58,106 bases of DNA from a virus. Its lineage: Duplodnaviria; Caudoviricetes. This document shows positions 20,995 to 50,954 of the stretch, piece by piece. The notes below the pieces were generated by a model, which worked only from the letters and a program-made list of their open reading frames with translations, was not told the DNA's origin and did not search any database. The translations under genes and the position numbers were made by a program. Position 1 is the first letter of the stretch. Every line of letters starts with the position of its first letter. Where the stretch lies: positions 1-58,106 of the IMG/VR virus record IMGVR_UViG_3300030329_004093, one strand, 5' to 3'.

Positions 20995-21065
20995 AGCGGA
21001 GGAGTGAAACGGTTCACGCTTGGCTCATAACCAAGAAATATTGGGTTCGACTCCCATCTCCGCAA
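20995..21065 (+). tRNA. tRNA-Met(CAT), initiator-like, atypical
   Basis: Acceptor (A)GCGGAG/CTCCGC(A), D arm GTGA/TCAC, anticodon arm CTTGG-CTCATAA-CCAAG, T loop TTCGACT; no encoded CCA. Confidence 0.85.
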
Positions 21066-29824: not shown

Positions 29825-30002
29825 AGAAAAAAGAATGGCAAAAGAATTTGAAAACAGTATTATTAAATGCGCTATTATTGATTTTTTAATAGAAGAAATA
29901 ATGCTAAAGGGTAGTTATGAAAAGCTTTCTTATTGGGATAAAACTGCTGTATCGAAATTAGTTGGTAAAAAACTTTATTTATTTGGAAGAGTTACTGCTT
30001 AA
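29817..30002 (+). CDS. Hypothetical protein
   Basis: Last plus-strand ORF, SD GGAG; converges with 29999..33598. Confidence 0.45.
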   Translation: MNREKRMAKEFENSIIKCAIIDFLIEEIMLKGSYEKLSYWDKTAVSKLVGKKLYLFGRVTA

Positions 30003-33000
30003 TCTTCATCAATCAAACTCTGTAAAGCATCCTTAGATAAACCATGAGTTGTTGCACTTGGGAAAACTGGTCTTGCAATATCCATAAAACTATTAGCTGC
30101 TAACTCACCTCTTTCTAAAGCAATATGGAATATTAATAATAACCAATCCATTGTCCATGTTACTCCATATCCAAATGGTGCATTCATAACAAATTTTCTC
30201 ATAAATCTTGATGTTTCTTCCCACTCATCATCATCGTCATCAAAACCTGCTGCTGCTTGGATAGCAAATACTAAAATACTCGCTAATCCTTGAGCATACA
30301 TTGAAGGTAACCCTCTAATCATACCACCTAAACCTACTGCTCTAGCTGTATTTTTTATAACACTTAACATAGCTAGATTACCTAAAGGACCCCATATTAC
30401 TAAATCCATTAACGCTGCTGTTAAAACTCCAGTTGTCAGAAACTTATACATTTGAGCTACTTCTTTTTGAGCTATATTCATCTTATTATAATTATGTAAA
30501 CTCCAATAAGAATACTTGCCAGGAACTGCTCCTTTTTTAATTATTTTAGTAACTGCTTTGGCCCAAGGAAAGAATCCAGTTTTATGCAAATCAACAAGTC
30601 CCATTTGAGTTATAGCGGCGTTTTTTGTAACTCTCCAATCACGACCATTCTTTTGAAATCCCCAATAATTAAATTTTTGTAACCATTTACCTAAACTTCC
30701 ATAACCTGCAGCTCCCATATCAGTGCTAGATAAACCCATATTTGAATACTTAGATATTTTCCTGCCTATTTCCATAGCTTTAGATAGCTCTTCACCTTCT
30801 AATTCCCACATATGAACGCTACTATCTATATATCCTAATCTTTGAGCTTGTAGTACACCTACTATAAATGATATACTTCTAATCCAAGATTCACCTGCAG
30901 ACATAGTTAAATTAGCTGATTTATATATCTCACCCTTAGCTTTCCACCAAACAGATAATCCCTTATATATATTAGCAGGAGTTTTATATTTCCAATTAAA
31001 CATAGAAGCGAAATGATTAATCTCATATTCCTTAGTTAGTGCATATTCAACCCAAGTATTTAAAATTGCATCTAATTTTTTACTTATAATATTTTGTTTT
31101 CTTATTTTAATATCATCTTTAGCTAATATTTTATTAACTTCTAGATTATAAGCTGGTGAGTTTTTCATTATATCTTTAACAAGAGCTCTAAATTCTAATA
31201 AAGATAGTGTATTAACCATATCTTCTTTAGATACACCTTCTGTAGCTAGTTTAACTTTCTTCATTTGAGCAATTAATGCACTTTTACTCATATTGGAAAA
31301 CATTTCTTTTGTAGCTGGATGATTTAACATAGCAGCATATATCTTCTCAACACTATGATTATCCATATTAAATCCAACTTTATCATTAACAAGAGATTTG
31401 CTAAAGAAATCTTGGAAAGCAGCAACTCCAGATTTAGCTATAAACATAGCAACTTCTTCAGGATGTTGATTCATGTATTCCTGAGCATCTTGAACAGCAT
31501 TAAAATTCCAATCTTGAACTGTTTGCATAATAGCTACTTTATTGATTATAGCTGTGCTCATTCCTCCTAAAAATGTAGCACTAAGTACTTTATTAATTCT
31601 ATTAGATATTCTTTGTATATTATGAACATCCATTCCTAAGGCATTGGCTATTTTTTGGTCAGATATACCTAAAGGACCTTCAACAGTAGGTGAATTAAAT
31701 GGTACTTTATAGTAATTTATTATACCTTTTTGAACAGATTCACTTTTAGTAAGCAATAAAGCTTCTAGCATTTCAGCTGTTAGTTTATTCCTATTAATGG
31801 CAGCAAATGTTTCATTTAAATGTTCATAATAAACAGCTTTATCTACATTAAGATTACGTATATCAAATGCATTAGTAACTCTCTTTAAATGTTTATGATG
31901 CCTAACAAATGGCATTTCCTCGCCTCTTACCATATCTTCTGGGTATATACCATCTTTCATTTCACTTATATTTCTAGCTCTTTTTAACTGGCTTTGTGTG
32001 ATACTTAATTTTTCATTTACATATTCAAGTTCATTTCTAGGAGATTCAAATTTCGCACTAGAATAAGGTAAATTATTTTCTATAACTTTTATTATTTGGT
32101 TTCTTCTTTTTTTCCAGCCTGCTTCTTCTTTCTCTAATCCATCTATATAACTATCCCACATAAGTTTAAAGGTTTGATTGGGATACCTTATTGGAAAGTG
32201 ATTTCTTCTATATTCAGATTCATTTGCTTGATTTCTAAACATTTCAACTTTAGCAATATTGCCAAAAGTTTCTTTAAAAGTATTATATTTTTCCATATAA
32301 GATGTTTTATGCTTATCGTCTAAATATTTTATTCTATCTAATATTTTCTTCCTATCTTTAATTTTCCATTCTTCAAAAAATAAAGTAAAAACCTCACCTT
32401 CACTTAAATCAGGAAAATGTTTTCTTAATGCTGATTTCATTGCATCAACAGATTCTAAAAACTCTTTTCTTGAATGTTTATATAAAGCATCTTCAATTTT
32501 TCTCGCTTCCTTAGTCATACTTAAGAATGATTTTATTTGAGTTTTAGTAAAAGGTATATTAAAAGAACCGTTTCTAAAATCTTTCAAATCTACTGGGTCA
32601 CTAAATGCAAATATAGGCTTTTTAGTTCCTTCATAAAACTCACCTGTTGTACCCCAGTTTTTATTTGCTTTAAATTGGGTACCATCAAATTCAATTTCAC
32701 CTATCATGTATCTTATAAAGAACTCTATCATTTTTTGCTTTTTAGTTAGCATTTCTCCCTTAGGTAGTTTCCATTTTTTTATATTAAGAACCATATCTTC
32801 TAAATCTTTAAAAATATCAGACATACCTTTAAATTCAACTTTAACAGATTTACCTTTTATTCTTTTAGTAACTGTTCTTTTATACATGAAATTACCAATA
32901 TCATTTTCTACAGATTCATAGTATTTATCCATTTGTTGAGAAAACTTAAAATATGCTCCACTTCTTTCTTTTTTACCTAATTCTTTTGGAGTAGTCCATC

Positions 33001-33598
33001 TAACCATAAATTTACCAAAAGCTCCTTTAGCAAATGTATTCTCATCAACAAAATCTTCTTTAGCAGTAGCCCAATTCCATGCTTTTCTATATATAACTTT
33101 CAAGGTTCCTACAGGTTGTACTCTTAAAATTTGTTTTAATTGTTCTTCTTTACTTAATTTATCGAAATCTTTTTTCTCTAAACCACCTTTACCAAATAAA
33201 GATGACTCTATAGATTCACTGCTAGGGGCCCATGGAAGAGCGCTTTTTCCCTTTTTACCAGAAGGCATGTGTCTCCATAACTCTTCTTGTACCATATCTT
33301 TCATTAATGGATTAGCAATAAATAGAGTAGCTATTTTAAATGCAAGTAAATATCTTTCACCTTGAGTACCATATTGTTGGTTAATAAAATCTTCTATCTC
33401 ATTCTCTGGAATAACATCATATAAAAGCTCTTTTATAGCTTCTTCACTAGCGGTTTTAAAATGCTCATCTACTTGCTGAACAAGTTCTTTCATGCCTATT
33501 ACATCAGCTTCTGTTATAATAGCATCTTGTATAGCCTGTTCAATAACATCTAAATCATTATGACCATCTTTTACTATTTGACAATTACTTTTAGCCAC
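29999..33598 (-). CDS. Large internal virion/ejection protein
   Basis: 1199 aa, helical, hydrophobic C-terminal segments; directly downstream of the giant RNAP gene. Confidence 0.55.
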   Translation of the reverse strand: MAKSNCQIVKDGHNDLDVIEQAIQDAIITEADVIGMKELVQQVDEHFKTASEEAIKELLYDVIPENEIEDFINQQYGTQGERYLLAFKIATLFIANPLMKDMVQEELWRHMPSGKKGKSALPWAPSSESIESSLFGKGGLEKKDFDKLSKEEQLKQILRVQPVGTLKVIYRKAWNWATAKEDFVDENTFAKGAFGKFMVRWTTPKELGKKERSGAYFKFSQQMDKYYESVENDIGNFMYKRTVTKRIKGKSVKVEFKGMSDIFKDLEDMVLNIKKWKLPKGEMLTKKQKMIEFFIRYMIGEIEFDGTQFKANKNWGTTGEFYEGTKKPIFAFSDPVDLKDFRNGSFNIPFTKTQIKSFLSMTKEARKIEDALYKHSRKEFLESVDAMKSALRKHFPDLSEGEVFTLFFEEWKIKDRKKILDRIKYLDDKHKTSYMEKYNTFKETFGNIAKVEMFRNQANESEYRRNHFPIRYPNQTFKLMWDSYIDGLEKEEAGWKKRRNQIIKVIENNLPYSSAKFESPRNELEYVNEKLSITQSQLKRARNISEMKDGIYPEDMVRGEEMPFVRHHKHLKRVTNAFDIRNLNVDKAVYYEHLNETFAAINRNKLTAEMLEALLLTKSESVQKGIINYYKVPFNSPTVEGPLGISDQKIANALGMDVHNIQRISNRINKVLSATFLGGMSTAIINKVAIMQTVQDWNFNAVQDAQEYMNQHPEEVAMFIAKSGVAAFQDFFSKSLVNDKVGFNMDNHSVEKIYAAMLNHPATKEMFSNMSKSALIAQMKKVKLATEGVSKEDMVNTLSLLEFRALVKDIMKNSPAYNLEVNKILAKDDIKIRKQNIISKKLDAILNTWVEYALTKEYEINHFASMFNWKYKTPANIYKGLSVWWKAKGEIYKSANLTMSAGESWIRSISFIVGVLQAQRLGYIDSSVHMWELEGEELSKAMEIGRKISKYSNMGLSSTDMGAAGYGSLGKWLQKFNYWGFQKNGRDWRVTKNAAITQMGLVDLHKTGFFPWAKAVTKIIKKGAVPGKYSYWSLHNYNKMNIAQKEVAQMYKFLTTGVLTAALMDLVIWGPLGNLAMLSVIKNTARAVGLGGMIRGLPSMYAQGLASILVFAIQAAAGFDDDDDEWEETSRFMRKFVMNAPFGYGVTWTMDWLLLIFHIALERGELAANSFMDIARPVFPSATTHGLSKDALQSLIDED

Positions 33599-36500
33599 AA
33601 ACTTCCTCTATATGTTTTTCAATCATTAAATCACCCACTCTATTAAATCTTTTTTCCATGTTCCTATTATTAGCAACTTCTTTATTATACAGCTCAGCAA
33701 ATTTACTCAATATTTTAGCATCTAACAATTGCTTTTCTGATTTAGACCTACTAGCTGGAGGTATATGAGTTCTTGTTTTAGTACCATCCCATCCTTCAAG
33801 GAAATGATATGTAGCAGCTACTTGAGCTACCCTTGATAATGCTTTAAAATCTTTATCAAAATTTGTTTTCCAAACTACAATTGGTTCATTTCTTTCCATA
33901 AAAGTAGGACTATCTGCTGATTTATCATTTGCATCTATAATACCTTTAAATCTACCCAACATATTTCTAGCATATAATTCACCTTTATCCCACTCAGATT
34001 TAGCCCAAGCACTCTTTTTACCCTGAACTAATCCTGATTTAGTATCCTCTAAAAATGCATCTCTTAAATATTGCTGCGCTATAGAAGGTAATAGGAAGTA
34101 TTCAACTGCTCTATCATGTGCATTTCTGTGTACATTATAATGCAATTTAATAGGACTACCATCAGAACCTATAATATTATATTTATTTTGCCATATTTCA
34201 TACTCTACATAAGGAGCAATAGCTATCTCTTCTATAGGAGTTAGTATGTTTGATTTAAAAGATACTCTTATATCTGGAGCAATACCTTTTATATAAGACT
34301 CTCTGTCTCTGGTATACTGATAGTAAGTAGAACTCTCATCTATTGTATCACTTAATCTTAACTTACCTTCTTCAAAATCAAATCCACTTCTAACTTTATT
34401 AGGAGTTTTCAAAAATTTCAAGTATGGTTTAAGCTTTTTAAATGCTGTTGCTGAGATAGTTTGACCTGCTTGAGGATGACCTTCTCCATATTTAAATAAT
34501 GAACGAGATAAACCATCATATGTATAGTTCCATTGTTGCAATAACATGTATTTAGCATTATCTACAGCAGCCTGAAGATATATCCTGAGTATTTTAGATA
34601 CCGTAAATGTTGGTATTTTACCATCTATTTTACCTACATTAAATTTAACCTTTTCATCTGGTTGCTTTAATTCAACTCTACCTACACCTGTTACGTTTAT
34701 ATGGTCAATTGTATTGACAAGTAATCCATATATAGATTGTATATTAACTATTTCACCTTGTTTATTATAGGTCATAGCTTCCATTAGCCTAAACCTATCA
34801 TCAGCCTTAGATAAATCTAATTGCCCTAATTTAGAATCAAATTCATTTAAATTAATACCACCTACCTCAAGTTCTTTAAAGAATTCAATAAAAGTATCTT
34901 CTATCTCTGATACAAATTTACCATCTGTATACTCATAAGGTAGCATTTCAAGTGATACCCAATCTCCATCATAATCTCCTTCAAGTCTTGCAAATACATC
35001 ATAAGGACTAAGCTCTATTAATCCACCTCTATTAAATAATCTTTTAATTCTAATTATCATAGCTCCACCAGCATGTGGTATAGGAGACCTAGCCATAAAC
35101 ATATTTACTGGATTTTCTGCAAGCCATTCATTTATTTCAGAAACATCTGTATCCTCAGCAACTTTCAAAGATATATTTTTAGCTGTTGCAAACTTAAGTA
35201 ACACTTGTTCTGCATTAGATTTCGAAAGCGCTGCTTCCCCTCTTTTTAAATCTCCTCTTAAATTAGGAGCTAAGTCAGCTTTAGTTCCTGGTTGTCTTTT
35301 AATCTTTAAGGTAGGAGTCATTTCTTTTGTTTGATATAAAACATTTAACATTGGTTCTAAATGCCATACAAAACCAAGTTTATTTAATTCTACTAGAGTA
35401 TTTCTAAATCCTATTTCATCATTTATATCTATTTTCTCAATTATATCAGATACTCTTTTAGATGCTGATTTAACAGTGGTGTCAGAGAAATCTCTATATA
35501 TACCAGCTATTTGAGCCTTAACATTAGATAGTATGTGATTTTTAAATGCACTTATTACTCTGGAGTCTGTTATGTGATTATACCACTGCATCATATGATT
35601 GCCAGTAACAGCATATTTTTCATCAGCATATTTAGTAAAACCTATCTCTCTTCCACTTACAGTAATACCTTTTTTACTAGTAGCTCCACCATACACCCAC
35701 TTAGCTTCATCTTGTGTTATAATCATATCCATACCTGCTGCTTCACCATCAACGAAGTTACCATTTTCATCTACTCTAGCAAGTAAAGTATCTCCCTCCC
35801 ATATCTCTATGCCCGATTCGGGCTGATAATGTTGGTGTTTAACTGCAACACCTTCCCCATCCCTATTCTTATATATAACAGTTTTAGCTTTAGCTTGTCC
35901 AGGTGTTAATCCATGATGTAATTCAAATGCTTCAAATAGTTGCCTAGCAGTAATACTACCACCATCTCCTATATAAAGATTGTCTACAGTCTCTACTAAT
36001 CTATATCCTTTGTTTGTTTTCTCTCTATATTTAAATACTAATTTTTCTTTATCTGCGATATACATATTAACATCAGTCATAGATGGGCTAATAGTCATAG
36101 GAGTAAAAGGTAGCTTTATTCTTTTACCTACAGTAGCAGCATCCATATCTAAATAATCAGGAAATATACTAGTCATAGCACTATGAACAGCTAATTCCTG
36201 AGCTGAATCAAATCCCATACTTTTATAATAAGCTTTATGATTATCAGTAACATCTACTATTAACAGCTTATCTGAATCACCTCTTGACATAACTATAGTT
36301 TTACTATGCTGAGTATAAAGCTCATCATTTAAAGTAGAAAGCTCATCTGCTGTAAAGAATCCATATCTAGACTTTTTATTCTGAAGAACATCTTTACCGC
36401 TTATAAAGGATATTAATCCACCACGAATACTCGTTAAATGTGTATACTTTTCATTATTATTAAGCTCAAATGGTGTTATTTTATCTGTAGAATTATTCTT

Positions 36501-39500
36501 TCCTCCAAGTTTGCTATCTGGTCCTTTTAATTCTATGCTCATTTCCTTAGCTACAGTACCTGCAAAATTACCTTCTGAATCAGTTATTACATCGTATTTT
36601 GTAATAATAGCATAAAAATTATCTCTAGCATTCATTTTACCACCTTCAGAATTGATAGTTAAACTGCTGAATAATCTATTAAACTTTTTAATTTGTTTTC
36701 TTGTCATACTAGGAGGGTAGCTTGCTCTTTTACCTATAATTTTAGAAACTTCTTTAACCCAAGTATCGAATTTATTCTCTATACTTAAATCTCTCATTAT
36801 ACTATAAGCTAGTTTATTTAATTGTTTAGCTACGTCAAAATCAACATGTACTCCAAACTCATCTCTATATGCAAAATCATTAGAACTTAAAGACCTTTCG
36901 TCACTTTCATTTTTATCTATTAAACCAGCCCAGCCTTCTCTATTTGCTCTCTCTATTTCAGTTAAAAAGCTAGATACTCCCATATCTATTTCTTCCTGAG
37001 GAACTAAAGTTTCTTGGGCTTTTCCAACAGCTGTATCTTTATAAGCTAATGAAGAATGCTTAGAGAACATAGTATCATACCAGAAAGAAAACTTAGAATG
37101 CAATTCAGGTGGTAACATGCTCATCATAGCATGTCTAAAATATTCAGGATGCACATAAAACTTTCTGGCTAATGCTTTATTTGTTTCATTCATCACTATA
37201 TTTAAATCTAACCATGCATTTTTAAATATTCTATTTATCTCTATATTTTTAGACAAATTAGGGTCTTCAATTTTCTGGTATCTTATCTGGTTATTAATTT
37301 TATTACTAAGTTGATTTAAATCTTTAGGAGTAGATGATTCGGCATCATGCTTTTCAATTACTTTCTGCATTCTAAACGTCTGATATGAAAGGACCCCTGG
37401 TATATTAAGGTATGTAATTTTCATAGTCTGACCTTTGCTCCAAGAAGGAGTGAGTATTTCATAATCAATCAAACCTTGTTTCTTCATATCTTTAACTATA
37501 ATATTTAAATCTTTTATAAATGGACCAGTTTTACCTTTTATCATAGGAAGCTCAATAGTCTCACCTGTTTCTTTTGATTCAACTTTCTTTATCTCTCTGT
37601 AATGCTTTAATACTAATTTTTGAGCTTCAGACCCTCTCCATAAAACTGCATTAGTTTTATTATTATGCTGTGGTTCATAATAAGCTTCATATAAATCTTT
37701 ACCAATCTCATCTTTTTGTGCATTACTTAAAAAATCAAATTTATCTACAATATTATTTACTATACTGCTTGCTTTTTCAACTCTAGACATTGTTTCTCCA
37801 CGACCATCTGGAAAACTTGCAGTTGAGAGATGTTCTCTGAATACATTCATCAAATAATTCCAAGCAGATTCATCAGCAGTATTGTAAAAGCTAAATGCTA
37901 AATCATTTCCTTGAATCATAAGATTAACTGCACCTAATCCAATATGTAATGATGGCTTTCCGTTTGCTGCTGAACGTTGTATTGAATTTAATATACGTAT
38001 TTTATTTAAACTTTTCTTTAAAGTGACTAAGTTTTTAGCAGGGCCTAATACGCCTGGAAGAATCTCATCTATCTGACTATCAATATTTTCTTTAGTAGCA
38101 TCTTCAGTTACAATATCTTTCATAATTTCAAGTGATTTATTTCTAAACTCAGTAATAGGTATAACTTGTCTTGTTAAATTACCTATCCTTTTTAAAAGTC
38201 GTTCTTGAAATATCATTCCAATAGAACCTGATAATTGCATTTTTCTTATAGATAAAAATTCATTAAAATCTTTGTCAAATTCATTATTCTCTTTTTCAAT
38301 CTCTTTAAAATGAACTAAGTTTTTAAATCTATTTCTTAAACCAAAAATAAAACCATAAAAACCTCTATCATTATCTCTGAATGTCTCTATTAGCTTTTTC
38401 TTAACAATACCTTTTTTTCCTTTTATAACAACATTCAAGCTATCCTCTAAAAGTATTTGTAATTCATAATTTACCTGATTTAATTTTATCTTAGGTATTT
38501 TAAACATTCGGCTTAATTCAATATCATTAATTTTCATTAAATCATTTTTAGAAGATATTCTATTTTTTAGAACTTGATTGTATTTAAAAATCTTTTCGTT
38601 AAGCCAATCTTCTATAGCAGAATCTTTTAAAGCTCCTTTATTTGACAGGATGAAATCAAAAGCATCAACCTCTTCTATATATCTTATATTTAAAAGATTA
38701 GAATAAAGTTCTTTAGGCGCTCTTCCAGTAACTATTTCATCTAATATTTCTAGAGACATCTTATTCAAGGTATGAGTTAATATTTTACTTGAATTAGGAG
38801 CAAAGTAATCAAACATTATATTACCAGCTTCTCTGTAACCTATATTCGTATTAGCTTGCTCAACAGAAACGAAGGATTTATTCCATATTATATCACTAAG
38901 TTTCTCCCAATTTAAATTTGAATACTCTTTAGTTAATGCATATATATATAATTTTTCAATTTCAGATATTCCAGATGATGATTTCATATACTTCTCTGAT
39001 GACGATGATGAATCAGATAAATATCTTTTTATATTTTCAGGAGAAAAATCTAATTTATCAACAGCATTTCCAAAATGTGATATATTTTTATTTAACCACT
39101 TTGTTTTAATAACAGACATTATCTTAACTTGACCATTCTCGCTATTAACTATATTATTTAAATGTTTAGATATTAAATTAATTGCATCATCAGTCCATGT
39201 AACCTCAAATACATTCAAACTTTGACCTGCAGGCAATCCGTTTAAAAGCTTACCGTACCAACCATATCCTAAAGATTTAACTACTTTTTCTTCTAATACT
39301 TCAATATCTTTTGTGATTAAATCTGTTTCACCAGTTAATCCAGTTTGCTTTTCTTCATTTCTTTTTTTTATATATTTATCTGGATTTTCAACATACTCAT
39401 AAATTTCATCTTTTATTATTTCATCATTAGCAGCTATAACATCAGTCTGATATTCATGAGCAATATCTGTATCTTCTATATCAGGAGGTAATGTCTGAAC

Positions 39501-42500
39501 TCTGTACCAACCAGCTGCATTAACAGCTCTATCCGTAGTCTCTGTATCTCCAAATTTTCCTAAATGTATATTATGACCTATGCCTTGACCACCATGTTTC
39601 TCATAAGTATCATAAGCTTTACCTGCAAAGAAATAAATCTTCTTGCTAGGTAATGGTCTTCCTATTTCTAATTCAATAGGCTCATAAAAGTTGTCTTCAT
39701 CTTCTTGCTCAATGTTTTGAGGGATGGTTAAATTAGAGCTTTCATATAATTCTACTGCTTCTGAAGTAAAAGCACTTTGAACTGTAACGTAATCTTGATG
39801 ATAGCTACTTTCAGCAGCATGTATATTATAATTTTTCCTCATAAATCTTGTATACATGTTAACCCATGCATCAAAAGATAAAGGATTATCATCGTTTACT
39901 ATTTCAGACCACTCTACAGTTCCTAAGCTTTCAATAAACTCATTAAATATTACTTGTTCTTGAGTCTTGATAGGCTTTTTACCTTTAAAAGAAGTTAATA
40001 ATTGAGAATAACTAATCTTAGTATCTTTAGTATTCAATTGCAATTGTTTTATTCTATCTACTACAGCATATTTAAAAGAAAGTTCTATTAATTTATATTG
40101 AACAGCATTGCTAACTTTACTTACCCACCCATCACCAAAAGCTACTGGAGATTGACCAGCTGCTTCGTCAGATGTAGGAGGTATTAAACCAACATCTTCT
40201 AATCTAGTAAATACTAATTGGTCTTGTAAATGATTCAAAGAAGATACTAAAAGCCTATTATCTCCATCTAATAAATCAGATTTTATTTGAGCTTTGTAGT
40301 TTTCTAAATGTTTAGATAGCTTTTTTTCACCCCATAGAGATTTAGGCAAACCTATTTGTTTTAATAATCTATCATGTATTTTCTTAGGAAGTTCTTTTAA
40401 CTGAGCTTGAGCTCTTCTATAAAGTTTTCTTTCTTTTGGTTTTAAGCTGCTTAAATCTTTACCGTATTTTCTTAATTTTTTTATACCATCTATAATCTTA
40501 TCAACTTCATCATTAGCTATATTCATATAAGCTGGAATAACTACTTTTGTATGATAATTATATTCAGCATTACCGTATTCTATAATATCATCTTCAAAGC
40601 TAATATCTGTATTTTCTCCAAATTCTTTTCTTAGTGATTCAAATTCTTTAGTATCCAGTATTAAACCTTGTTTAAGCAATTTATCATATTGAATTGCAGT
40701 AGTTACGCTGGTAGGTTTTAAATCATCTAATATAGTATACCTATTATCGTCAAGCATCATATCAACAACTTTACCTAAAGTCATATTATCTTTAGCAAAA
40801 TCATAGAAATCAACATCAAGATTGTATTTAGAGTTATCTCCGAATAAAAATCTCTTAACTAAATCTAAAAACCTTTTCCATGCATTTATAATACCAGACC
40901 ATTTACTATTTCTTTGCTGATAATCAGATAATTGTTTAGCTTTCTTAGCTGCTTCTCCAAAAGTCTCGGCTAAAACTTCTTCTATAAATCCATCACTACC
41001 CTCTTGAAGTTCAGGATATTCTTTTAAAACCCATGCATATAATTTCTTTCCTTCATCATCTTTAATAATATCTTTATATATATCTAAAACACTACCCTTA
41101 ACCTGTTTATTATTTAGTAATGCTCTAGCAATAACATGCCCTATCTCATGAAAAGGAGTACTCATAGTCATGTACTTAGGGTTTAACCAAATAGTATCTG
41201 TATCTGAATCATATGCACCTCTAAAATTATAGAGACTACTATTTCTTTCATTTTCAGGAACTAATTTAAATTGAATTGTTTTTGAAGTATCTACATCAAG
41301 TGCATCTTGTAATGGAGTTTTTGATATAGTTCTAGAGAATTTTTTATTTAAAATATCAATAGATTGTTGTATAAATACTTCTTTTTCTTCTTCAGCTAGC
41401 TTCTTAATATCTTCTTCAGATAGAACCTTTTGTTTTCGAGACTTTTCAGAAACAGGCAATTCTAGGCCTCTTTTTTTCAACTCAGCCTTAATAGAGGCTT
41501 TGTTCATTTTAGCGGCCATATTGCCCCTTTTTTGGCTTTCTAAAACAGAACCTTTAAAGGATTTCAGTAAATCTTCATCAGAAAGGTCTTCCCAACTAGC
41601 TTTTTCTTTAACCTTTTCTAAATAAAACTTAGAGTCAGTTTCATCACCAACTTCAGGAGTTTTTTGAGCACTTATCTTTTGTTTTACTTTTTTAGTAACC
41701 CTAGGTAATGGTAAACCTCTTTCTTTTAATTCAGTTCTTATAATAGGAATTTCCATATCTACTCCACCCTTAGCTTTTCTTTCAAGATATTCATCTTTAA
41801 GTTCTTGGTCTGAGTATTGTTTATATTTTCCTACATCTACTTCTGTTTTTATATCCTCTCCAACTTCTACAGTTTTTTCATCTAATAAATCTTCTCTTTC
41901 TATAACTGTATCAGGAGATATATCTTCTTCATCTTTTTCAATTAAATCTTCTTTAACAATCTTTTTACCATCAGGATTTACATCCATATCTTCTGCCTGT
42001 TCGCTTTCAGTAGGAACTTCTAATAAATTATCTATTTTACTAAACTCTTCAGCATAAACTTGCTCCCACATATTATCTTTCATAGCAGATAGTAAGTCAG
42101 ATTTTTTAACTCCAGCTCTATTTAAAATTTCAAATGCATTACCTGTTTCCTTTTTAGACTTTTCTAATATTTCTAATATCTTTTCAGGGCTTCTTTTATT
42201 ATCATCTAGATTGTCATAAAAGTCAAGTTCATCTCCATCCTCTAGCATATTAACAAACCCAGCTAATATATTAGCATCTTCATCTACATTCATAGTACCA
42301 TCTTCATTATAAGTAACAGTACTTTTTCTTCCAGCTTTTCTTTCATTAAAATCTGCATTTTTCTCAGCTTGTTTTTCTACGCTATTAATATTTAACTTTT
42401 CTTGTCTTTCAAAATTCCAAGCTTTTTGAGCAGTATCAAATGTAACACTATTAAGTAGATTTCCATTTGCTCCAATAATATCTACAATATATTTCTTACC

Positions 42501-44822
42501 TACTTTTTTTATTTCAGTTTTAGCGCCTATATAATCTTTAAATACTTCTGGCTTATTTTTATCTAAAAACTCAGAAGTAAATTGTCTTTCTAATTGTTTA
42601 ACTCTTTGATAAGATTCTTTAAATGTACTAAATGTTTCTCCAGTATCAAATTCTTCTACAGGTCCTTCAATTTTATTCCCATCTTTATCTAATTTATAAC
42701 TACCATCTTTATTTCTTTTAAATGTAGCTGAAGAATAAAATACATTATATGTATTATCTTCATTCTTTTTAGAGAATACCTTCAAGAATTTATTCTTATT
42801 ATTTAATTTGTTCCAATTATCTAATCTATCTTTAATAGTCCCTGTATATAAAGCAGACGCTCCACCTAAAGCACCACCCATAGAAAGTCCACCCCAAGCA
42901 GTTTCAGCTAAAGTATTCCAATTAAATTCATCTCTAAATCCTTCTTTTTTATATCCACCAGGACCTATAGTAGCGAAGAATATTTGAGAAACATATTGAG
43001 ACATTTCCTCAGCTGCATTACCTCCCATAGATAAAAACATTTTAGTTAGAACATTTGAGTTTGTGGCATCCCATCTTCCTAATTTTCCAACAATAGGTAA
43101 TTTTCTAGTTTCTTTTATAAGGTAATTAATAGAACTTCTATTGGCTCCCTTACGCATTAAATCCTTACCACCAAAACCCCATATTTTACCTATACCATCT
43201 AATAGAGATTTTTCTAACATATATGTAACACCTGTAGAAAACATTAAACTAGTACTAGCTATTTTAAATGCATCAGATGGATTCATTCCTTTTTTCATAA
43301 CATTTTTACCACTTACAATATAATTATCATTTTTATATTGCTCTATCATGCTATCTATTATATAAGGCTCATAACCTTTTTCATATAATTCATCTTTATA
43401 TTCATTTAGTTCTCCATTCATAATATCAAGATTTATAAATTCAGGTGCTGTTTGATAGGTAATTGCTTCTCTAGCCATAGATTCCATTTCCATACTAGTT
43501 AAGTAAGCAGCTCCTGCTCTAGTACTTTTTGTAAGTCCAGTTACAGCAATGGCTTGAAAAGCACTTGTAAGAGCTCCATAAGTACCTGCCCATAATCTTT
43601 TCCATCCAGTACCATCTCCAGCCATTACATCTCTTATAAAATTTTCACTTTTATTATATTCATTCCATTTGTCTAAAGCTTGATAATGAGGGTCATTATG
43701 TAATTTATTTTCTATATTCTCACCTATCTCTTTATAGAGCTTATCCATTTTCTCATTATAAGTTTTATCCTTAATATTTCTTTCCCAATTATGATATGGT
43801 AAAGTATATCTCAAATCATTAGTCATATCTACCCTATCCTTTAAAGGCAAGTGACCGAAATCTGTCTCTGCAATTATTTTAGCATAACCATATTCTGCAG
43901 ATTTCACAACAGCTTCAACTAAACTTGCATCAGGTATAGGTTCTCCATTTTTAAGAGATTCATTGTATTCATATACTTTATTAGCCATAATCAACCAATC
44001 TTCTCCTAACGGATAAAGAGGATGAGATGTATCTGAAAGAATATCATTAAATTTATCGCTATGTAAAATTTGGGCTTGTTCGTTAATATTTGCTAAAGCA
44101 TCTGTAAGATTAAAATCTTTATCTATATTTTTTCTTTTATGCATCATAGAATCAATTTGAGCTTGATTCTTACCTTTCATATTTACTTCATCTGATTCAG
44201 CTTTAAAAGAACCAGTATACTTATCAGGAAAGTAATCAAATAAACTTGTTTGCATTTTATATTTACTATATTCACTATCTTCCCAGAAAAATGCATCCTT
44301 AAAGGTATTTTTAAAGTTATCCCAACTATAAAAAGGGCTTAGTTTTTTTCGTTCTTCATCAGGAAGGTCCCTTAATTGGTCAACTGTTAATCCAGTTTCA
44401 CTATGCTTATATCCTTGCCATTTACTTTCACCTCCAAATAATGTATAAACTCTATCAATAGGTTTAACAAATGGCTTAGTATATTTATCTACCATTCCCC
44501 ATATAGTAGGAGATACGTGAGTTTCTAGAGTAGACCTATCTTCAGAAAAAGGATTTATAACTTGAGGAGCTTTGAATAACATTTCTTTAGGCATTTCAAG
44601 AGCTGTTTTTGTTTGACCTTTAAGAACATCCATACTATATTCAGGTTCATCTAAAACTTCATCCCATCCACCTAAATTATCCATTAATTCTGGTTGATAG
44701 TCTTTAAAGTAATCGATTAATTCTAAATCGGATAATCCTTGATACTCTGGGTTAGGATAATATAGTCTAATTAAGCCAGCTATTTCGGAAAGATTTAAAC
44801 TTTCTTCACGTCCATATGACAT
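33591..44822 (-). CDS. Giant polyvalent virion protein: putative virion RNA polymerase with zincin-like protease domain
   Basis: 3743 aa; HEIGH...EEVLAE at aa ~1225; MARSP followed by GDYDGD at aa ~3283, the DxDGD active-site loop of double-psi-barrel polymerases. Confidence 0.75.
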   Translation of the reverse strand: MSYGREESLNLSEIAGLIRLYYPNPEYQGLSDLELIDYFKDYQPELMDNLGGWDEVLDEPEYSMDVLKGQTKTALEMPKEMLFKAPQVINPFSEDRSTLETHVSPTIWGMVDKYTKPFVKPIDRVYTLFGGESKWQGYKHSETGLTVDQLRDLPDEERKKLSPFYSWDNFKNTFKDAFFWEDSEYSKYKMQTSLFDYFPDKYTGSFKAESDEVNMKGKNQAQIDSMMHKRKNIDKDFNLTDALANINEQAQILHSDKFNDILSDTSHPLYPLGEDWLIMANKVYEYNESLKNGEPIPDASLVEAVVKSAEYGYAKIIAETDFGHLPLKDRVDMTNDLRYTLPYHNWERNIKDKTYNEKMDKLYKEIGENIENKLHNDPHYQALDKWNEYNKSENFIRDVMAGDGTGWKRLWAGTYGALTSAFQAIAVTGLTKSTRAGAAYLTSMEMESMAREAITYQTAPEFINLDIMNGELNEYKDELYEKGYEPYIIDSMIEQYKNDNYIVSGKNVMKKGMNPSDAFKIASTSLMFSTGVTYMLEKSLLDGIGKIWGFGGKDLMRKGANRSSINYLIKETRKLPIVGKLGRWDATNSNVLTKMFLSMGGNAAEEMSQYVSQIFFATIGPGGYKKEGFRDEFNWNTLAETAWGGLSMGGALGGASALYTGTIKDRLDNWNKLNNKNKFLKVFSKKNEDNTYNVFYSSATFKRNKDGSYKLDKDGNKIEGPVEEFDTGETFSTFKESYQRVKQLERQFTSEFLDKNKPEVFKDYIGAKTEIKKVGKKYIVDIIGANGNLLNSVTFDTAQKAWNFERQEKLNINSVEKQAEKNADFNERKAGRKSTVTYNEDGTMNVDEDANILAGFVNMLEDGDELDFYDNLDDNKRSPEKILEILEKSKKETGNAFEILNRAGVKKSDLLSAMKDNMWEQVYAEEFSKIDNLLEVPTESEQAEDMDVNPDGKKIVKEDLIEKDEEDISPDTVIEREDLLDEKTVEVGEDIKTEVDVGKYKQYSDQELKDEYLERKAKGGVDMEIPIIRTELKERGLPLPRVTKKVKQKISAQKTPEVGDETDSKFYLEKVKEKASWEDLSDEDLLKSFKGSVLESQKRGNMAAKMNKASIKAELKKRGLELPVSEKSRKQKVLSEEDIKKLAEEEKEVFIQQSIDILNKKFSRTISKTPLQDALDVDTSKTIQFKLVPENERNSSLYNFRGAYDSDTDTIWLNPKYMTMSTPFHEIGHVIARALLNNKQVKGSVLDIYKDIIKDDEGKKLYAWVLKEYPELQEGSDGFIEEVLAETFGEAAKKAKQLSDYQQRNSKWSGIINAWKRFLDLVKRFLFGDNSKYNLDVDFYDFAKDNMTLGKVVDMMLDDNRYTILDDLKPTSVTTAIQYDKLLKQGLILDTKEFESLRKEFGENTDISFEDDIIEYGNAEYNYHTKVVIPAYMNIANDEVDKIIDGIKKLRKYGKDLSSLKPKERKLYRRAQAQLKELPKKIHDRLLKQIGLPKSLWGEKKLSKHLENYKAQIKSDLLDGDNRLLVSSLNHLQDQLVFTRLEDVGLIPPTSDEAAGQSPVAFGDGWVSKVSNAVQYKLIELSFKYAVVDRIKQLQLNTKDTKISYSQLLTSFKGKKPIKTQEQVIFNEFIESLGTVEWSEIVNDDNPLSFDAWVNMYTRFMRKNYNIHAAESSYHQDYVTVQSAFTSEAVELYESSNLTIPQNIEQEDEDNFYEPIELEIGRPLPSKKIYFFAGKAYDTYEKHGGQGIGHNIHLGKFGDTETTDRAVNAAGWYRVQTLPPDIEDTDIAHEYQTDVIAANDEIIKDEIYEYVENPDKYIKKRNEEKQTGLTGETDLITKDIEVLEEKVVKSLGYGWYGKLLNGLPAGQSLNVFEVTWTDDAINLISKHLNNIVNSENGQVKIMSVIKTKWLNKNISHFGNAVDKLDFSPENIKRYLSDSSSSSEKYMKSSSGISEIEKLYIYALTKEYSNLNWEKLSDIIWNKSFVSVEQANTNIGYREAGNIMFDYFAPNSSKILTHTLNKMSLEILDEIVTGRAPKELYSNLLNIRYIEEVDAFDFILSNKGALKDSAIEDWLNEKIFKYNQVLKNRISSKNDLMKINDIELSRMFKIPKIKLNQVNYELQILLEDSLNVVIKGKKGIVKKKLIETFRDNDRGFYGFIFGLRNRFKNLVHFKEIEKENNEFDKDFNEFLSIRKMQLSGSIGMIFQERLLKRIGNLTRQVIPITEFRNKSLEIMKDIVTEDATKENIDSQIDEILPGVLGPAKNLVTLKKSLNKIRILNSIQRSAANGKPSLHIGLGAVNLMIQGNDLAFSFYNTADESAWNYLMNVFREHLSTASFPDGRGETMSRVEKASSIVNNIVDKFDFLSNAQKDEIGKDLYEAYYEPQHNNKTNAVLWRGSEAQKLVLKHYREIKKVESKETGETIELPMIKGKTGPFIKDLNIIVKDMKKQGLIDYEILTPSWSKGQTMKITYLNIPGVLSYQTFRMQKVIEKHDAESSTPKDLNQLSNKINNQIRYQKIEDPNLSKNIEINRIFKNAWLDLNIVMNETNKALARKFYVHPEYFRHAMMSMLPPELHSKFSFWYDTMFSKHSSLAYKDTAVGKAQETLVPQEEIDMGVSSFLTEIERANREGWAGLIDKNESDERSLSSNDFAYRDEFGVHVDFDVAKQLNKLAYSIMRDLSIENKFDTWVKEVSKIIGKRASYPPSMTRKQIKKFNRLFSSLTINSEGGKMNARDNFYAIITKYDVITDSEGNFAGTVAKEMSIELKGPDSKLGGKNNSTDKITPFELNNNEKYTHLTSIRGGLISFISGKDVLQNKKSRYGFFTADELSTLNDELYTQHSKTIVMSRGDSDKLLIVDVTDNHKAYYKSMGFDSAQELAVHSAMTSIFPDYLDMDAATVGKRIKLPFTPMTISPSMTDVNMYIADKEKLVFKYREKTNKGYRLVETVDNLYIGDGGSITARQLFEAFELHHGLTPGQAKAKTVIYKNRDGEGVAVKHQHYQPESGIEIWEGDTLLARVDENGNFVDGEAAGMDMIITQDEAKWVYGGATSKKGITVSGREIGFTKYADEKYAVTGNHMMQWYNHITDSRVISAFKNHILSNVKAQIAGIYRDFSDTTVKSASKRVSDIIEKIDINDEIGFRNTLVELNKLGFVWHLEPMLNVLYQTKEMTPTLKIKRQPGTKADLAPNLRGDLKRGEAALSKSNAEQVLLKFATAKNISLKVAEDTDVSEINEWLAENPVNMFMARSPIPHAGGAMIIRIKRLFNRGGLIELSPYDVFARLEGDYDGDWVSLEMLPYEYTDGKFVSEIEDTFIEFFKELEVGGINLNEFDSKLGQLDLSKADDRFRLMEAMTYNKQGEIVNIQSIYGLLVNTIDHINVTGVGRVELKQPDEKVKFNVGKIDGKIPTFTVSKILRIYLQAAVDNAKYMLLQQWNYTYDGLSRSLFKYGEGHPQAGQTISATAFKKLKPYLKFLKTPNKVRSGFDFEEGKLRLSDTIDESSTYYQYTRDRESYIKGIAPDIRVSFKSNILTPIEEIAIAPYVEYEIWQNKYNIIGSDGSPIKLHYNVHRNAHDRAVEYFLLPSIAQQYLRDAFLEDTKSGLVQGKKSAWAKSEWDKGELYARNMLGRFKGIIDANDKSADSPTFMERNEPIVVWKTNFDKDFKALSRVAQVAATYHFLEGWDGTKTRTHIPPASRSKSEKQLLDAKILSKFAELYNKEVANNRNMEKRFNRVGDLMIEKHIEEVCG

Positions 44823-44823
44823 A

Positions 44824-46392
44824 TTACTTACCTGAATTGATTAAATGTATGAGTTCTTTGAATTTCGGGTCTATTTTAGTTGAGTCTGATTGTTGTACAA
44901 GTTTCATTAGTTGTTCCATTAATTCGTTGTTTGATGAAGTTTTACCAGGATTTGCTATTATCATATTTTGATAATCACTTGCTTCATCTGTAGTTATATT
45001 ACCTTGTTTAAGCATACCAGCAACAAACATCATATCTTTTTTTTGTTCTTCACTTAACCAACCACCACTATCTATAGCATTTTCTTGTAAATCTTTAGCA
45101 AATTCTAAATCCCTTTTAAGCATAGCTTTATGAGTAGCATTAAGGCTTGTAGCTGTTAGTGCTGCTTCATCTACATACCATTTTCCAATAGGGTCACCCT
45201 CTTTATTTTTATTTGTATTTTTAATAAGAGCTCCTTCTTTACCTTTTTTTCCTATCCAAAATTCAACAGGGTCTCTATTTACGGAACTATAATCATCGCC
45301 ATACCATTGGTCACTATTTTTTTGCCACTCATTCATTAAGGGTTTATCCCACCAATGGTCAGAGGCATGACTAGTCATAACTTGTATATTTTTACCAAGC
45401 TTATCGTATAAAGCCCATTTTTGTTGTTGATTTTTTTCAAGATTATAGCCCATTTCTTTAAAACTTTGTATTTTAAGGCCAGATATATCGGAATAACCTT
45501 TTTTCCTTACCCTTTCAGCAACAAGATTATAATCACTTGTATTGTAGTTACCAATTCTTTGCTTATATAAATTGTTTTGAGCAGTTTCATCTAATTTTAT
45601 TTCATTAAATTTAGCTATATTAGCATCATCTGTAGGTAGATAAGTTCCTGGGTCAATACCTCTAGCCATTAATTCTTGATTGGTATATTCTATTTTAGAG
45701 CCATATCTTCCTATTTTAGCATCTTTTCCTTGAGGAGTTTTAAATGCAGTAGCCAGATAATTATCTACCCATATTTTTTTACCTTCATTAAGAGGGTCAT
45801 CAACTTCTTTTTTAAATACATTTCTATATTCAGGATTATCAATCATTGCTTCTAAATCCATTATATCTACTACATTCTTAATACCTTGTTCTGTACCAGC
45901 TTTAGCATAATAATTAGGAAGTTTATCTATTTCTCCTGTCATATTATTAAGAACACCCATTATTTCTCTATTCTTTTCAGATGCTTTTCTTACAGTATCA
46001 AAGTAATCATACTTATCATTTAAATCATTAGCTTGATAAAAATAACCATTTTTTAATTCAACATTATAATCTTCCATTAAAGCTTCAGCATCTCTAGTAG
46101 TATGTTTTCCATCAGAAGATATATTATTCTTTAATTCAGTTTCGGTTAATCCATATAAGTTTAATTTATACAAACTTTGATGTATATCTTTTAGTCCTTG
46201 AGTATATTCATTCATTACCAATTGCTGTTCTTGACTATACTCTCTGTCTAAATTTTTACTTAATTGTTGAAGTTCGAAATGATTTTGTTGTTGATTTTCA
46301 GCAGCTTGATACTTTTCCTCTAAATCATCCTGTCTCCAGATGCCTGTAGTTATAGTTTCAATAAGATTTAATGCATTAGTTAAACTAGACAT
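44824..46392 (-). CDS. Putative internal virion/ejection protein
   Basis: 522 aa, Gln-rich coiled-coil N-terminus, upstream of giant protein. Confidence 0.5.
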   Translation of the reverse strand: MSSLTNALNLIETITTGIWRQDDLEEKYQAAENQQQNHFELQQLSKNLDREYSQEQQLVMNEYTQGLKDIHQSLYKLNLYGLTETELKNNISSDGKHTTRDAEALMEDYNVELKNGYFYQANDLNDKYDYFDTVRKASEKNREIMGVLNNMTGEIDKLPNYYAKAGTEQGIKNVVDIMDLEAMIDNPEYRNVFKKEVDDPLNEGKKIWVDNYLATAFKTPQGKDAKIGRYGSKIEYTNQELMARGIDPGTYLPTDDANIAKFNEIKLDETAQNNLYKQRIGNYNTSDYNLVAERVRKKGYSDISGLKIQSFKEMGYNLEKNQQQKWALYDKLGKNIQVMTSHASDHWWDKPLMNEWQKNSDQWYGDDYSSVNRDPVEFWIGKKGKEGALIKNTNKNKEGDPIGKWYVDEAALTATSLNATHKAMLKRDLEFAKDLQENAIDSGGWLSEEQKKDMMFVAGMLKQGNITTDEASDYQNMIIANPGKTSSNNELMEQLMKLVQQSDSTKIDPKFKELIHLINSGK

Positions 46393-47866
46393 TATTGCCT
46401 TGTAAATATGACGCTACATCTGAATGTTTTATATTTCCTAACCAATCTTGGAACTGTTTAAACTTATCAATCTCAGTAAGACCTGCTGTAAATGGTGCAT
46501 AAGCTTGAGGGTAAGGGTCGCCAGTTGGCTTAGAACCTCCTGGCTTAATATCTTGTCTATATTCATCATAATACCCTGGCATATATTCATCAGTATCACC
46601 TCCTATAAATATGTCAGACTCACCAAACTTTTTACCTCTATAGCCTATATCACCTGTGCCTGGAGTCTCTGTTCTACCAGCAATATGCTCTCCAAATTTT
46701 TTATGCTCATCATATAAATCACTCATCATATTGTCCATTTGTGTATAAGCTTGACTAGCTCCACTTGTCATACTTTCCAATCCCTCACCAACATCTTCAC
46801 CAGCTTCAGTTAATATTTTTTGTGCATCACCTCTCTCATCTTCAATTCTTGATAATTCTCCTTGATATAAATCTTCTATATCTCTTTTTTCTAAAACAAT
46901 ATCTCTTAGAGTTTTATCTGAAACTGCTTGTTCTTGAAGAACTCTTTCCGCTGCAGGCGCAGAATAAGCCATTCCAGTTCTAGCTATATTAGCTTGTTGT
47001 TGTTCTATGTCACTAGGAAGTCCTCCGATAATTTCTTTTCTAGCTAAAGTTTGAAGATAATCAGCTTTTTCTTTATCCTGCTCTGCTGTAATTTCTTGTT
47101 CATCAAGGTCAGTAAGTGTATCATGATAATCCGTCTCTGCTTGAGCATAGTCATCCATTAAGTTGCCTGCTGTACCTAAATCTGTTTTTAAAATTAATGG
47201 GTCACCGCTTGAACCTGCAAATTGAGATAAACTACCTCCAGCTAAAGTCTCTAGCATTGTACGTACTTGTTGATTGATAGCACTTAAAGGTTCAAATACT
47301 GCCCCTATATCTCCAGCACCTCCAATTGTTTGTGAAATAGGGTCTGATAAAGCTGTTCTTAAATATGGTTTATAATAACCTTCTGCAAATCCTTCTGAAT
47401 ATTTTTGCATTCTCTCTTTCATGTCATCACCCTTAGGATATGTAGCGTCATTTTGGAGAGCATTACCACGATGTTTAGTATCACTTGAATATATTCTAGA
47501 GCCATCTAATTTTGTACTCCAAGGAACTGTAGGTCTACCTGTAACCCATCCTGATTCAGGAGGTGTAGGAAATTCACCAATCTCATGAGGAATATTTTTT
47601 CCTTCTGGACTAAATCCCTGATAACCTCCCAGACCACCAGCATAAGGTATTTGCTTAGGAAAACCAAAATCATAATCTTTAAGTTTAAATGCAGTTCTTC
47701 CAATATCTGTTGCACCACTACCAAAATCATAACTATGAGATTTGCCAGTAAAAAATTCTTTACATTCATCTATAGGTCCGTTATATTCACGAGAATCAGA
47801 AGAAACCTCAACCAATTTTCCTTTATTATCATCCCATTTAAAATTTACTTCTGTATATATCTTCAT
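46385..47866 (-). CDS. Putative internal virion/ejection protein
   Basis: N-terminal MKIYTEVNFKWD...YNGPIDEC leader; acidic coiled coil; RTGMAYS motif. Confidence 0.5.
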   Translation of the reverse strand: MKIYTEVNFKWDDNKGKLVEVSSDSREYNGPIDECKEFFTGKSHSYDFGSGATDIGRTAFKLKDYDFGFPKQIPYAGGLGGYQGFSPEGKNIPHEIGEFPTPPESGWVTGRPTVPWSTKLDGSRIYSSDTKHRGNALQNDATYPKGDDMKERMQKYSEGFAEGYYKPYLRTALSDPISQTIGGAGDIGAVFEPLSAINQQVRTMLETLAGGSLSQFAGSSGDPLILKTDLGTAGNLMDDYAQAETDYHDTLTDLDEQEITAEQDKEKADYLQTLARKEIIGGLPSDIEQQQANIARTGMAYSAPAAERVLQEQAVSDKTLRDIVLEKRDIEDLYQGELSRIEDERGDAQKILTEAGEDVGEGLESMTSGASQAYTQMDNMMSDLYDEHKKFGEHIAGRTETPGTGDIGYRGKKFGESDIFIGGDTDEYMPGYYDEYRQDIKPGGSKPTGDPYPQAYAPFTAGLTEIDKFKQFQDWLGNIKHSDVASYLQGNNV

Positions 47867-47880
47867 AAAAATCCTTTCTT

Positions 47881-49167: not shown

Positions 49168-49234
49168 GATATTCTCCTTATTGTATTAAAATAATTCATT
49201 GTAATATAAAATACTCTCTTTATATATACAACAT

Positions 49235-50524: not shown

Positions 50525-50954
50525 CGTGTTTATTTGTAGAAATATCTCTTCTAGTTACATATTCTAACCCAAAGTCATTTATAAATAAATTACCTGGCCA
50601 TACAGGAGAAAAAAACTTTAATTGAGCATCTTTTACTGATAAATTTAAATCAGATAAATCTACTTTATAATAATATGCACCTCCAGAAGTTCCTTGTCTA
50701 ACAAGGTCAGAATTAGTCATAGAAAAAAGAGGAATAGAGTTTTCTCCAATTATACAAGATACACTTAAATAAAAATCATTTGATTCTAATACTCCATATT
50801 CATCATATATTTGAGGACCATAAAAAACATTAACATAAGCTCCTGTAATTCTTTTCTCACTATTTACAACACCTAAATCTGTAAGCTTTGTGATAAACTT
50901 CCAGTGTGTACTTACAGGTTTTGAATTCCATATTTTAGCAGATACAACCTTCAT
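50514..50954 (-). CDS. Hypothetical tail-associated protein
   Basis: Overlaps nozzle gene; TKLTDLG...K and INDFGLEY resemble tail tubular B C-termini. Confidence 0.45.
   Translation of the reverse strand: MKVVSAKIWNSKPVSTHWKFITKLTDLGVVNSEKRITGAYVNVFYGPQIYDEYGVLESNDFYLSVSCIIGENSIPLFSMTNSDLVRQGTSGGAYYYKVDLSDLNLSVKDAQLKFFSPVWPGNLFINDFGLEYVTRRDISTNKHDED

Follow-up and report, generated by a model that had tools for sequence, protein, structure and literature searches.

The DNA analysed here, referred to below as the window, is the whole 58,106-nucleotide (nt) stretch of the IMG/VR virus record IMGVR_UViG_3300030329_004093 (Duplodnaviria; Caudoviricetes), and one of its genes encodes a giant protein of 3743 amino acids (aa) whose C-terminal part is predicted to be a two-barrel RNA polymerase (RNAP). 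With good confidence, we read this protein as a late-made, capsid-packed and ejected polyvalent protein whose C-terminal polymerase starts phage transcription. Under such a mechanism, a short-tailed phage would produce it late, at the same time as its structural proteins, store it inside the capsid as a polyvalent internal (cargo) protein and thread it unfolded into the host at infection. The catalytic Mg2+ would be bound by D3283, D3285 and D3287, the first phage genes would be transcribed by this polymerase independently of the host's, and, once inside, a zincin metallopeptidase in the same chain would most likely cut the polyprotein, or else a barrier or a host protein. The ORF, its conserved catalytic motifs, the predicted fold with its closest structures, the distribution of the family and the cysteine pattern come directly from the analysis, whereas packaging, ejection, early transcription from DNA and proteolysis are the inferred parts of this mechanism. 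Injected two-barrel RNAPs that belong to a giant polyprotein and come with a zincin are already known as a kind of system; what is new is that the family is a sequence orphan, comes from another phage lineage and another genome size class, and has the canonical motif at its active site.

The polymerase core of the giant protein

The giant open reading frame (ORF; protein P0001) occupies 33591..44822 on the minus strand, begins with ATG and, according to the ORF listing and translation, is open throughout without internal stops. It takes 11,232 of 58,106 bases, or 19.3% of the single-contig assembly, in agreement with the share of about 19% given in a preliminary description of the stretch that was made from the letters alone. 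The motifs on which that description relied were all located in the translation, namely FMARSP at aa 3242-3247 (nt 35082-35099), DYDGD at aa 3283-3287 (nt 34962-34976), HEIGH at aa 1225-1229 (nt 41136-41150) and EEVLAE, which includes E1282, about 55 residues downstream of HEIGH. The spacing from R3245 to D3283 is 38 residues. The RNA polymerase core corresponds to aa 2850-3743 (33594..36275, minus strand), and a moderately conserved pre-core region at aa ~2251-2849 (36276..38072, minus strand) may be the place of accessory RNAP domains.

An AlphaFold2 model of aa 2850-3743, built on a 44-row alignment (numbering is that of the fragment plus 2849), reached a predicted local distance difference test (pLDDT) score of 90.2 and a predicted template-modelling (TM) score, pTM, of 0.87. 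Foldseek found 38 PDB matches to this model at E ≤ 0.001, and among those listed, all were two-barrel RNAPs or RNAP complexes. The best PDB match was 6vr4_A, the virion RNAP gp66 of phage phi14:2 (E 1.7e-10, TM-score on the query, TMq, 0.47), followed by QDE-1 (best E 1.8e-6, TM ~0.4), then plant RDR2, then the small Thermus-phage RNAPs P74 gp62 and P32 gp64 (8f5m, 8f72), and then bacterial beta'. In BFVD, ranks 1 and 2 went to close members of the family, unnamed, with identities of 37% and 29% and TMq values of 0.89 and 0.90; ranks 3-7 were weaker and also unnamed, and named crAss-phage proteins appeared from rank 8 with E 1.8e-9 and above, with the phi14:2 protein S0A2C3 at E 3.2e-6. Since the best PDB matches of the core model are two-barrel RNAPs, a double-psi barrel is predicted around DYDGD, and both gp66 and QDE-1, which the preliminary description had named for comparison when it proposed a two-barrel active site, were matched.

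The residues expected of such an active site are strictly conserved. The 44 alignment rows agree without exception at R3245, P3247, E3281, D3283, D3285, D3287, R3413, Q3417, D3421, W3431 and C3742, and the Arg, Pro, Glu and three Asp are also invariant in all 16 rows of a second alignment. The three Asp sit in a strand-rich segment of the model, within the predicted second (beta'-like) barrel at aa ~3240-3304 (34911..35105, minus strand), which contains RSPIPH (R3245, P3247) and EGDYDGD (E3281, D3283, D3285, D3287). The putative first (beta-like) barrel has been placed at aa ~2978-3075 (35598..35891, minus strand); its invariant residues are K2980, K2995, H2996, D3038, E3039 and K3041, of which K2980, K2995 and K3041 lie in a beta-rich segment about 250-300 residues upstream of the catalytic motif. 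Taken together, the model supports the C-terminal ~900 residues folding as a single-chain two-barrel RNA polymerase. No Pfam match to a T7-type palm/fingers polymerase was found in the giant protein, the predicted fold being of the two-barrel kind.

Several results weigh against this reading and against the wider mechanism. The TM-scores against gp66 and QDE-1 are modest (0.41-0.47) with large root-mean-square deviations, and the first barrel was assigned from secondary structure and order only. At the sequence level, Pfam gave a single sub-threshold DUF5858 match for the giant protein (E 0.092), PHROGs matched nothing on the whole protein, phmmer against PDB sequences returned chance FabG matches, and the family profile against PDB sequences gave two chance matches, neither relevant. 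Alignment by hhalign of the core with crAss RNAP profiles was not significant (E 0.23 and 0.41). Moreover, tblastn of the core found no relative in 50,697 GenBank phage records, and none was found in the genomes that represent 185,579 prokaryotic species, one genome each. No terminal repeat or end overlap was found in the 58,106-bp contig, which may be incomplete. In favour of the reading, in the sole hhalign match to the four-sequence crAss RNAP profile (E 0.41), R3245 and the three Asp align with gp66 R1322 and D1361/1363/1365. Neither the Pfam RdRP model nor QDE-1 appeared in the Pfam, phmmer or PDB-sequence profile results, and the resemblance to the RNA interference (RNAi) polymerases is structural only.

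Judged by sequence, the giant-protein family is an orphan, without match in Pfam, PHROGs, PDB sequences or the 50,697 phage records, and no paper describing it was found in the literature. It is well represented in metagenomes. A word search of 5.8 billion proteins with the giant protein returned nine proteins, its own included, while a HMMER search of 1.84 billion representatives gave 177 metagenomic clusters at E ≤ 0.001 and 61 at E ≤ 1e-30; the widely shared part is aa ~2870-3725. In the protein atlas, the family fell into viral clusters without names, in which 20% of members gave an LPD23 lead and 12% an LPD22 lead. A single-protein query for related loci found none, but a six-row alignment query succeeded and gave 30 related IMG/VR loci, all with a giant ORF of 1,239-4,199 aa, some of them cut by contig ends. 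An ORF of ~1,100-1,400 aa lies directly downstream of the giant in 28 of these 30 loci. Eleven of the 30 contigs measure 51-59 kb and the largest does not exceed 59.3 kb.

The probable zincin block and the layout of the chain

Upstream of the polymerase core, the giant protein carries a block at aa 1182-1332 (40827..41279, minus strand) that is likely a zincin metallopeptidase, with E1282 (nt 40977-40979) as the candidate third ligand. Of 40 database homologues that have at least 1500 aa and carry DxDGD, 36 have an HExxH upstream of that motif, as do 27 of the 30 IMG/VR giant ORFs, while composition alone would yield 0.046 HExxH per 2500 aa; the catalytic and HExxH motifs exceed chance. In an alignment of 17 rows cut from the window and the loci, H71, E72 and H75 (alignment numbering) are invariant in all 17 and E128, which equals E1282, is conserved in at least 90%. 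A hidden Markov model of the block detects 18 of the 30 IMG/VR giant ORFs.

The AlphaFold2 model of the block (pLDDT 79.7) predicts strands at 29-33, 48-51 and 56-59, a helix at 68-82 that bears HExxH and a helix at 123-143 that bears the Glu. This predicted topology matches that of the zincin metallopeptidases of polyvalent proteins as described by Iyer et al., in which the HExxH helix follows a three-stranded sheet and the Glu is on a later helix (PMC5512222). By hhalign, the block aligned with phi14:2 gp65 / crAss001 gp49 at E 6e-4 with HExxH in register, and with the zincin end of p-crAssphage gp45 at E 0.0044 over 148 columns, both being single-pair E-values. On the other side, Foldseek gave no match for the block at E ≤ 0.001 (best E 0.062), and none of the Pfam and PHROG models recognises it. 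Most of the top 30 Foldseek rows are of zincin type, namely M34-type catalytic domains, Pro-Pro endopeptidases and IrrE/PprI, and the best of these, the M34-type zincins, are the ones linked to the N4 domain in the account of Iyer et al. The zincin protease of the preliminary description has thus gained support from motif conservation, predicted topology and weak profile matches, with weak fold statistics.

What the block would cut is a separate matter. We favour processing of the giant chain itself, but there is a real, if smaller, chance that the HExxH block is not self-processing and is instead a cell-wall or host-protein peptidase, or a zinc-binding structural module. Drobysheva et al. leave both RNAP activation and peptidoglycan digestion open for the crAss zincin (bioRxiv 10.1101/2020.03.07.982082), and here the fold matches are weak and no cleavage products are known. 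Against this, Iyer et al. see processing of the multidomain polypeptide as the likeliest role of a zincin in a polyvalent protein (PMC5512222), and the block of the giant protein lies between conserved modules of one chain, as would suit self-processing.

Those modules include, on the N-terminal side, a Gly-rich conserved module at aa ~350-800 (42423..43775, minus strand) that is common to 5-10 of the collected homologues. A transmembrane reading of this module was rejected because no 19-residue window reaches a Kyte-Doolittle value of 1.2. Between the zincin block and the pre-core region, a variable middle region at aa ~1400-2250 (38073..40625, minus strand) is kept only in the two or three nearest homologues. 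The relatives of the giant protein carry further domains elsewhere in the chain, in the manner of the zincin polyvalent proteins of Iyer et al.: a Pfam scan of 16 relatives (P0006-P0010 and others) found an SF1 (Pif1/RecD-type) helicase in three, cpYpsA in two, an AlkB-like oxygenase in two and GNAT in one. Helicase, AlkB-like, cpYpsA and GNAT domains had no Pfam match in the window's own giant protein.

Cysteine depletion and the proposed packaging and ejection

The giant gene is near the end of a long minus-strand late operon, past the terminase, portal and capsid genes, and is followed only by a gene for a 1199-aa protein (29999..33598, minus strand), whose GTG start overlaps the codon of Cys3742 (33597..33599, minus strand). 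This penultimate residue is the only Cys in the 3743 aa of the giant protein, while 29 would be expected from the rest of the proteome (0.77%, 105 of 13,558), giving P(≤1) = 7e-12. The depletion extends to the neighbouring genes: across the 6,814 aa of a six-gene block from 49235-50524 through 29999-33598, 52.8 Cys would be expected and 3 are present. Within it, the four genes upstream of the giant (44824..50524, minus strand) encode proteins of 522, 493, 428 and 429 aa, 1872 aa together, with a single Cys among them. Over its last ~60 residues, the 428-aa protein (47881-49167, minus strand) is 46% identical to structural proteins of Brucella Tb-type podoviruses, and its end also matches the PHROGs entries 'virion structural' and 'DNA ejection protein'; it is probable that the four upstream proteins are further internal or ejection proteins. 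Suppressed Cys content has been described for the N4-like ejection operon and its proteins (PMC11445570). From the late-operon position, the synteny and the Cys depletion, we infer that the giant protein is packaged and ejected.

Upstream of the Cys-poor block lies a 1758-aa protein (50951-56227, minus strand) without any family match, in which 13 Cys were counted. This probable external tail or fibre protein marks the edge of the Cys-depleted genes.

An improbable but not negligible alternative is that the core is a real two-barrel RNAP that is neither packaged nor injected, being intracellular like P23-45 gp64 or SPbeta YonO, or else a primer-making enzyme. The genome has a primase-helicase and no recognisable DNA polymerase, and the structures matched include those of small phage RNAPs that are not virion proteins (8f5m, 8f72), both of which would suit such an enzyme. 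Nevertheless, the gene is inside the late structural operon, and the ~2,850 additional N-terminal residues with a zincin block resemble known ejected polyvalent proteins (PMC5512222). Moreover, the Cys depletion, 1 against 29 expected, is of the kind reported for ejected proteins (PMC11445570), and the terminal-Cys pattern described below is common to phi14:2 and crAss001 proteins reported in virions by mass spectrometry. A catalytically dead polymerase relic, retained as bulk cargo, plug or needle component, is very improbable. In its favour, gp66 of phi14:2 crystallised in a self-inhibited form, so that such folds can be inactive as packed (bioRxiv 10.1101/2020.03.07.982082); against it, relatives down to ~21% identity all keep the three Asp, the RxP and a number of basic and acidic residues, which is the pattern of an enzyme under selection.

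In addition to its overall depletion, the position of the remaining Cys is strongly conserved. Among 50 DxDGD proteins of at least 1,000 aa, the window's own included, 48 have exactly one Cys, within the last six residues, the exceptions being P0046 (two Cys) and the truncated P0098 (none). The single C-terminal Cys is present in 29 of the 30 IMG/VR giants, and the remaining one (L025) is cut by the locus end. The downstream protein has a complementary feature, a Cys near its N-terminus (position 4-8) in every one of 28 loci. This residue is its sole Cys in 26 of the 28 and is unchanged throughout a 20-row alignment; the window's version is Cys6 (nt 33581-33583), the only Cys of the 1199-aa protein.

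A similar arrangement was observed in a survey of four Crassvirales genomes (phi14:2, crAss001, DAC15 and p-crAssphage), one of which is a fused case. In phi14:2, gp67 ends with C1797, gp66 carries C3 together with C2179 (of 2180 residues), and gp65 carries C3. In crAss001, gp47 has C2339 of 2341, gp50 has C5, C2404 and one internal Cys, and gp49 has C5; gp47 is encoded on the opposite strand, which speaks against a nucleotide-level cause of the pattern. For DAC15, the corresponding residues are C2220 of 2222 in protein 61, C5, C2265 (last) and three internal Cys in protein 63, and C4 with one internal Cys in protein 62. In p-crAssphage, gp45 has C1956 of 1957 with two internal Cys, and gp44, which is annotated as RNAP fused to the following subunit, begins with C3 and lacks a C-terminal Cys.

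This shared signature supports an ejected cargo module shared with Crassvirales. More tentatively, with somewhat less than even chances, the cargo proteins here and in Crassvirales might be joined head to tail through their terminal Cys, by disulfide or by a shared metal. If so, the C-terminal Cys of one cargo protein would bond the N-terminal Cys of the next to give one covalent 'train', which would be pulled through the tail in order and then come apart in the reducing cytoplasm, and gene fusion and Cys linkage would be interchangeable routes to the same cargo chain. The pattern thus offers a concrete hypothesis for the ordering and release of cargo chains. Disulfides have been reported to form in crassvirus virions (PMC10172136). 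A prediction of the complex between the last 300 aa of the giant protein and the first 300 aa of the next protein scored 0.00 without controls and speaks neither for nor against binding. The terminal-Cys pattern was not found described in the literature retrieved: the main text of PMC10172136, taken apart from its supplements, does not contain the word cysteine, and the gp66 preprint (bioRxiv 10.1101/2020.03.07.982082) mentions neither cysteine nor disulfide. Thioredoxin and truncated thioredoxin genes are located about 2-3 kb from the RNAP cargo genes of p-crAssphage (L033 24369-25636), and they may bear on the Cys pattern.

Relation to Crassvirales and other known systems

The closest known counterpart is gp66 of phi14:2 (PDB 6VR4), the best structural match, which like the giant core has both barrels in a single chain. 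The distance from RxP to the first Asp is 38 residues in the giant protein and 39 in gp66, and in both, the Asp triad and then ...MLP follow. In phi14:2, a zincin block is also present in the same cargo set, with the weak profile match mentioned above, and the Crassvirales likewise have the RNAP gene near the end of the late operon, a protein of ~1,100-1,400 aa following it and terminal Cys paired across consecutive cargo proteins.

The differences are equally clear. In the giant family, the motif is DxDGD, with Gly invariant in 44 of 44 rows and also in the 16-row alignment, and a His follows RxPxx. RxPxxH and DxDGD are canonical for cellular beta', and RxPxxH...DxDGD is also canonical in the eukaryotic RNAi polymerases. 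In contrast, the gp66 type has DFD(I/V)D, and the His is found neither in gp66 nor in crAss001 gp50; Ile or Val at the fourth motif position is described for all crAss-like phages by Drobysheva et al. (bioRxiv 10.1101/2020.03.07.982082). The zincin is upstream in the same polypeptide in the giant protein and in the downstream protein in phi14:2, and no significant sequence similarity of the giant core to gp66 orthologues was found by tblastn, hhalign or profile. The genomes of the giant's phages are ~52-59 kb, whereas those of Crassvirales are ~90-105 kb. Comparison of the 1199-aa protein with phi14:2 gp65 / crAss001 gp49 was not significant either (BLASTP E 3.5, hhalign E 0.11). The same C-terminal hydrophobic stretch and acidic cluster were aligned both times, at aa ~1081-1140 of the 1199-aa protein and aa ~1287-1333 of gp65, as a hint only.

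The late genes recognised by PHROGs are, all on the minus strand, the small terminase (16895-17620), the large terminase (15016-16581), the portal (12366-14654) and the major head protein (9802-11379). The terminase matches 431 phage records, and the best 25 of the 431 are from Lentibacter, Roseobacter, Vibrio ICP2-type and similar podoviruses at 24-28% identity; among these 25 listed matches, there is no Crassvirales record. The portal had two weak matches among phage records, neither labelled crAss, and the capsid protein had one. The capsid protein belongs to phrog_1328, while that of phi14:2 belongs to phrog_11589, and BLASTP between the two found nothing. Because of the catalytic-motif differences, the capsid PHROG and the BLASTP result, the window phage is not filed in Crassvirales, nor its core in the gp66 family, though the core would work in the manner of the gp66 type. 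The crAss-like comparison of the preliminary description needs qualifying: gp66 is the best structural match, but the capsid protein, the terminase matches listed and the catalytic motif set the phage apart from Crassvirales.

Other systems share parts of the arrangement. QDE-1 and the RNAi polymerases (PDB 2J7N, 7Y7T; RDR2 7W84) are the second-best structural group and, like the giant core, are single chains with two barrels, the catalytic motif of QDE-1 being DYDGD. They differ in that the giant core is phage-encoded and joined to ~2,850 residues of cargo protein. The N4-like podoviruses (Schitoviridae), with genomes of the ~60-70-kb class, have in gp50 and DEV gp71 a likewise giant (~3,400-3,500 aa) ejected protein, described as Cys-suppressed and as having a polymerase and a zincin. 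However, the N4 enzyme is a T7-like single-subunit polymerase, whereas the giant core is of the two-barrel type, and N4 gp50 is reported without Cys and its homologues at 0.00075% (PMC11445570), while the giant family keeps exactly one, C-terminal. In Thermus phage P23-45, gp96 is likewise described as joining a two-barrel RNAP to a virion protein, one that exits the particle when infection begins, and the small RNAPs related to it, 8f5m and 8f72, are among the matches. That phage differs in being a siphovirus, the fusion to a tape measure protein is N-terminal, and the structural match is weaker than that of gp66.

Injected two-barrel RNAPs have so far been characterised in Crassvirales and one Thermus siphovirus, and the present finding adds a widespread marine-type ~55-kb lineage. 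The head genes have no detectable crAss affinity, yet the cargo module shares fold, zincin and Cys signature with crAss phages. The module is either far older than Crassvirales or moving between phage lineages. As the giant enzyme keeps the canonical RxPxxH...DxDGD that is lost in the crAss enzymes, it provides one more useful point of comparison for the proposed origin of RNAi polymerases from a phage (bioRxiv 10.1101/2020.03.07.982082).

The rest of the genome includes a plus-strand block at 18-30 kb with primase-helicase, Sak4, Gam-like, RusA-like and polynucleotide kinase genes. Among the 39 other ORFs scanned, which included every ORF of at least 240 aa, no other RNA polymerase family and no DNA polymerase family was recognised. 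A repeat scan of the early region (16.5-30.1 kb) gave no convincing shared promoter motif. A single tRNA-Met (CAT) is located at 20996-21064 on the plus strand, inside a 1.2-kb early stretch without an ORF of at least 80 aa. In addition, a metallophosphoesterase gene (57219-57986, minus strand) is found in or beside the late operon, as is likewise the case in phi14:2 (g063 and g075; L031 73-582 and 28230-29153).

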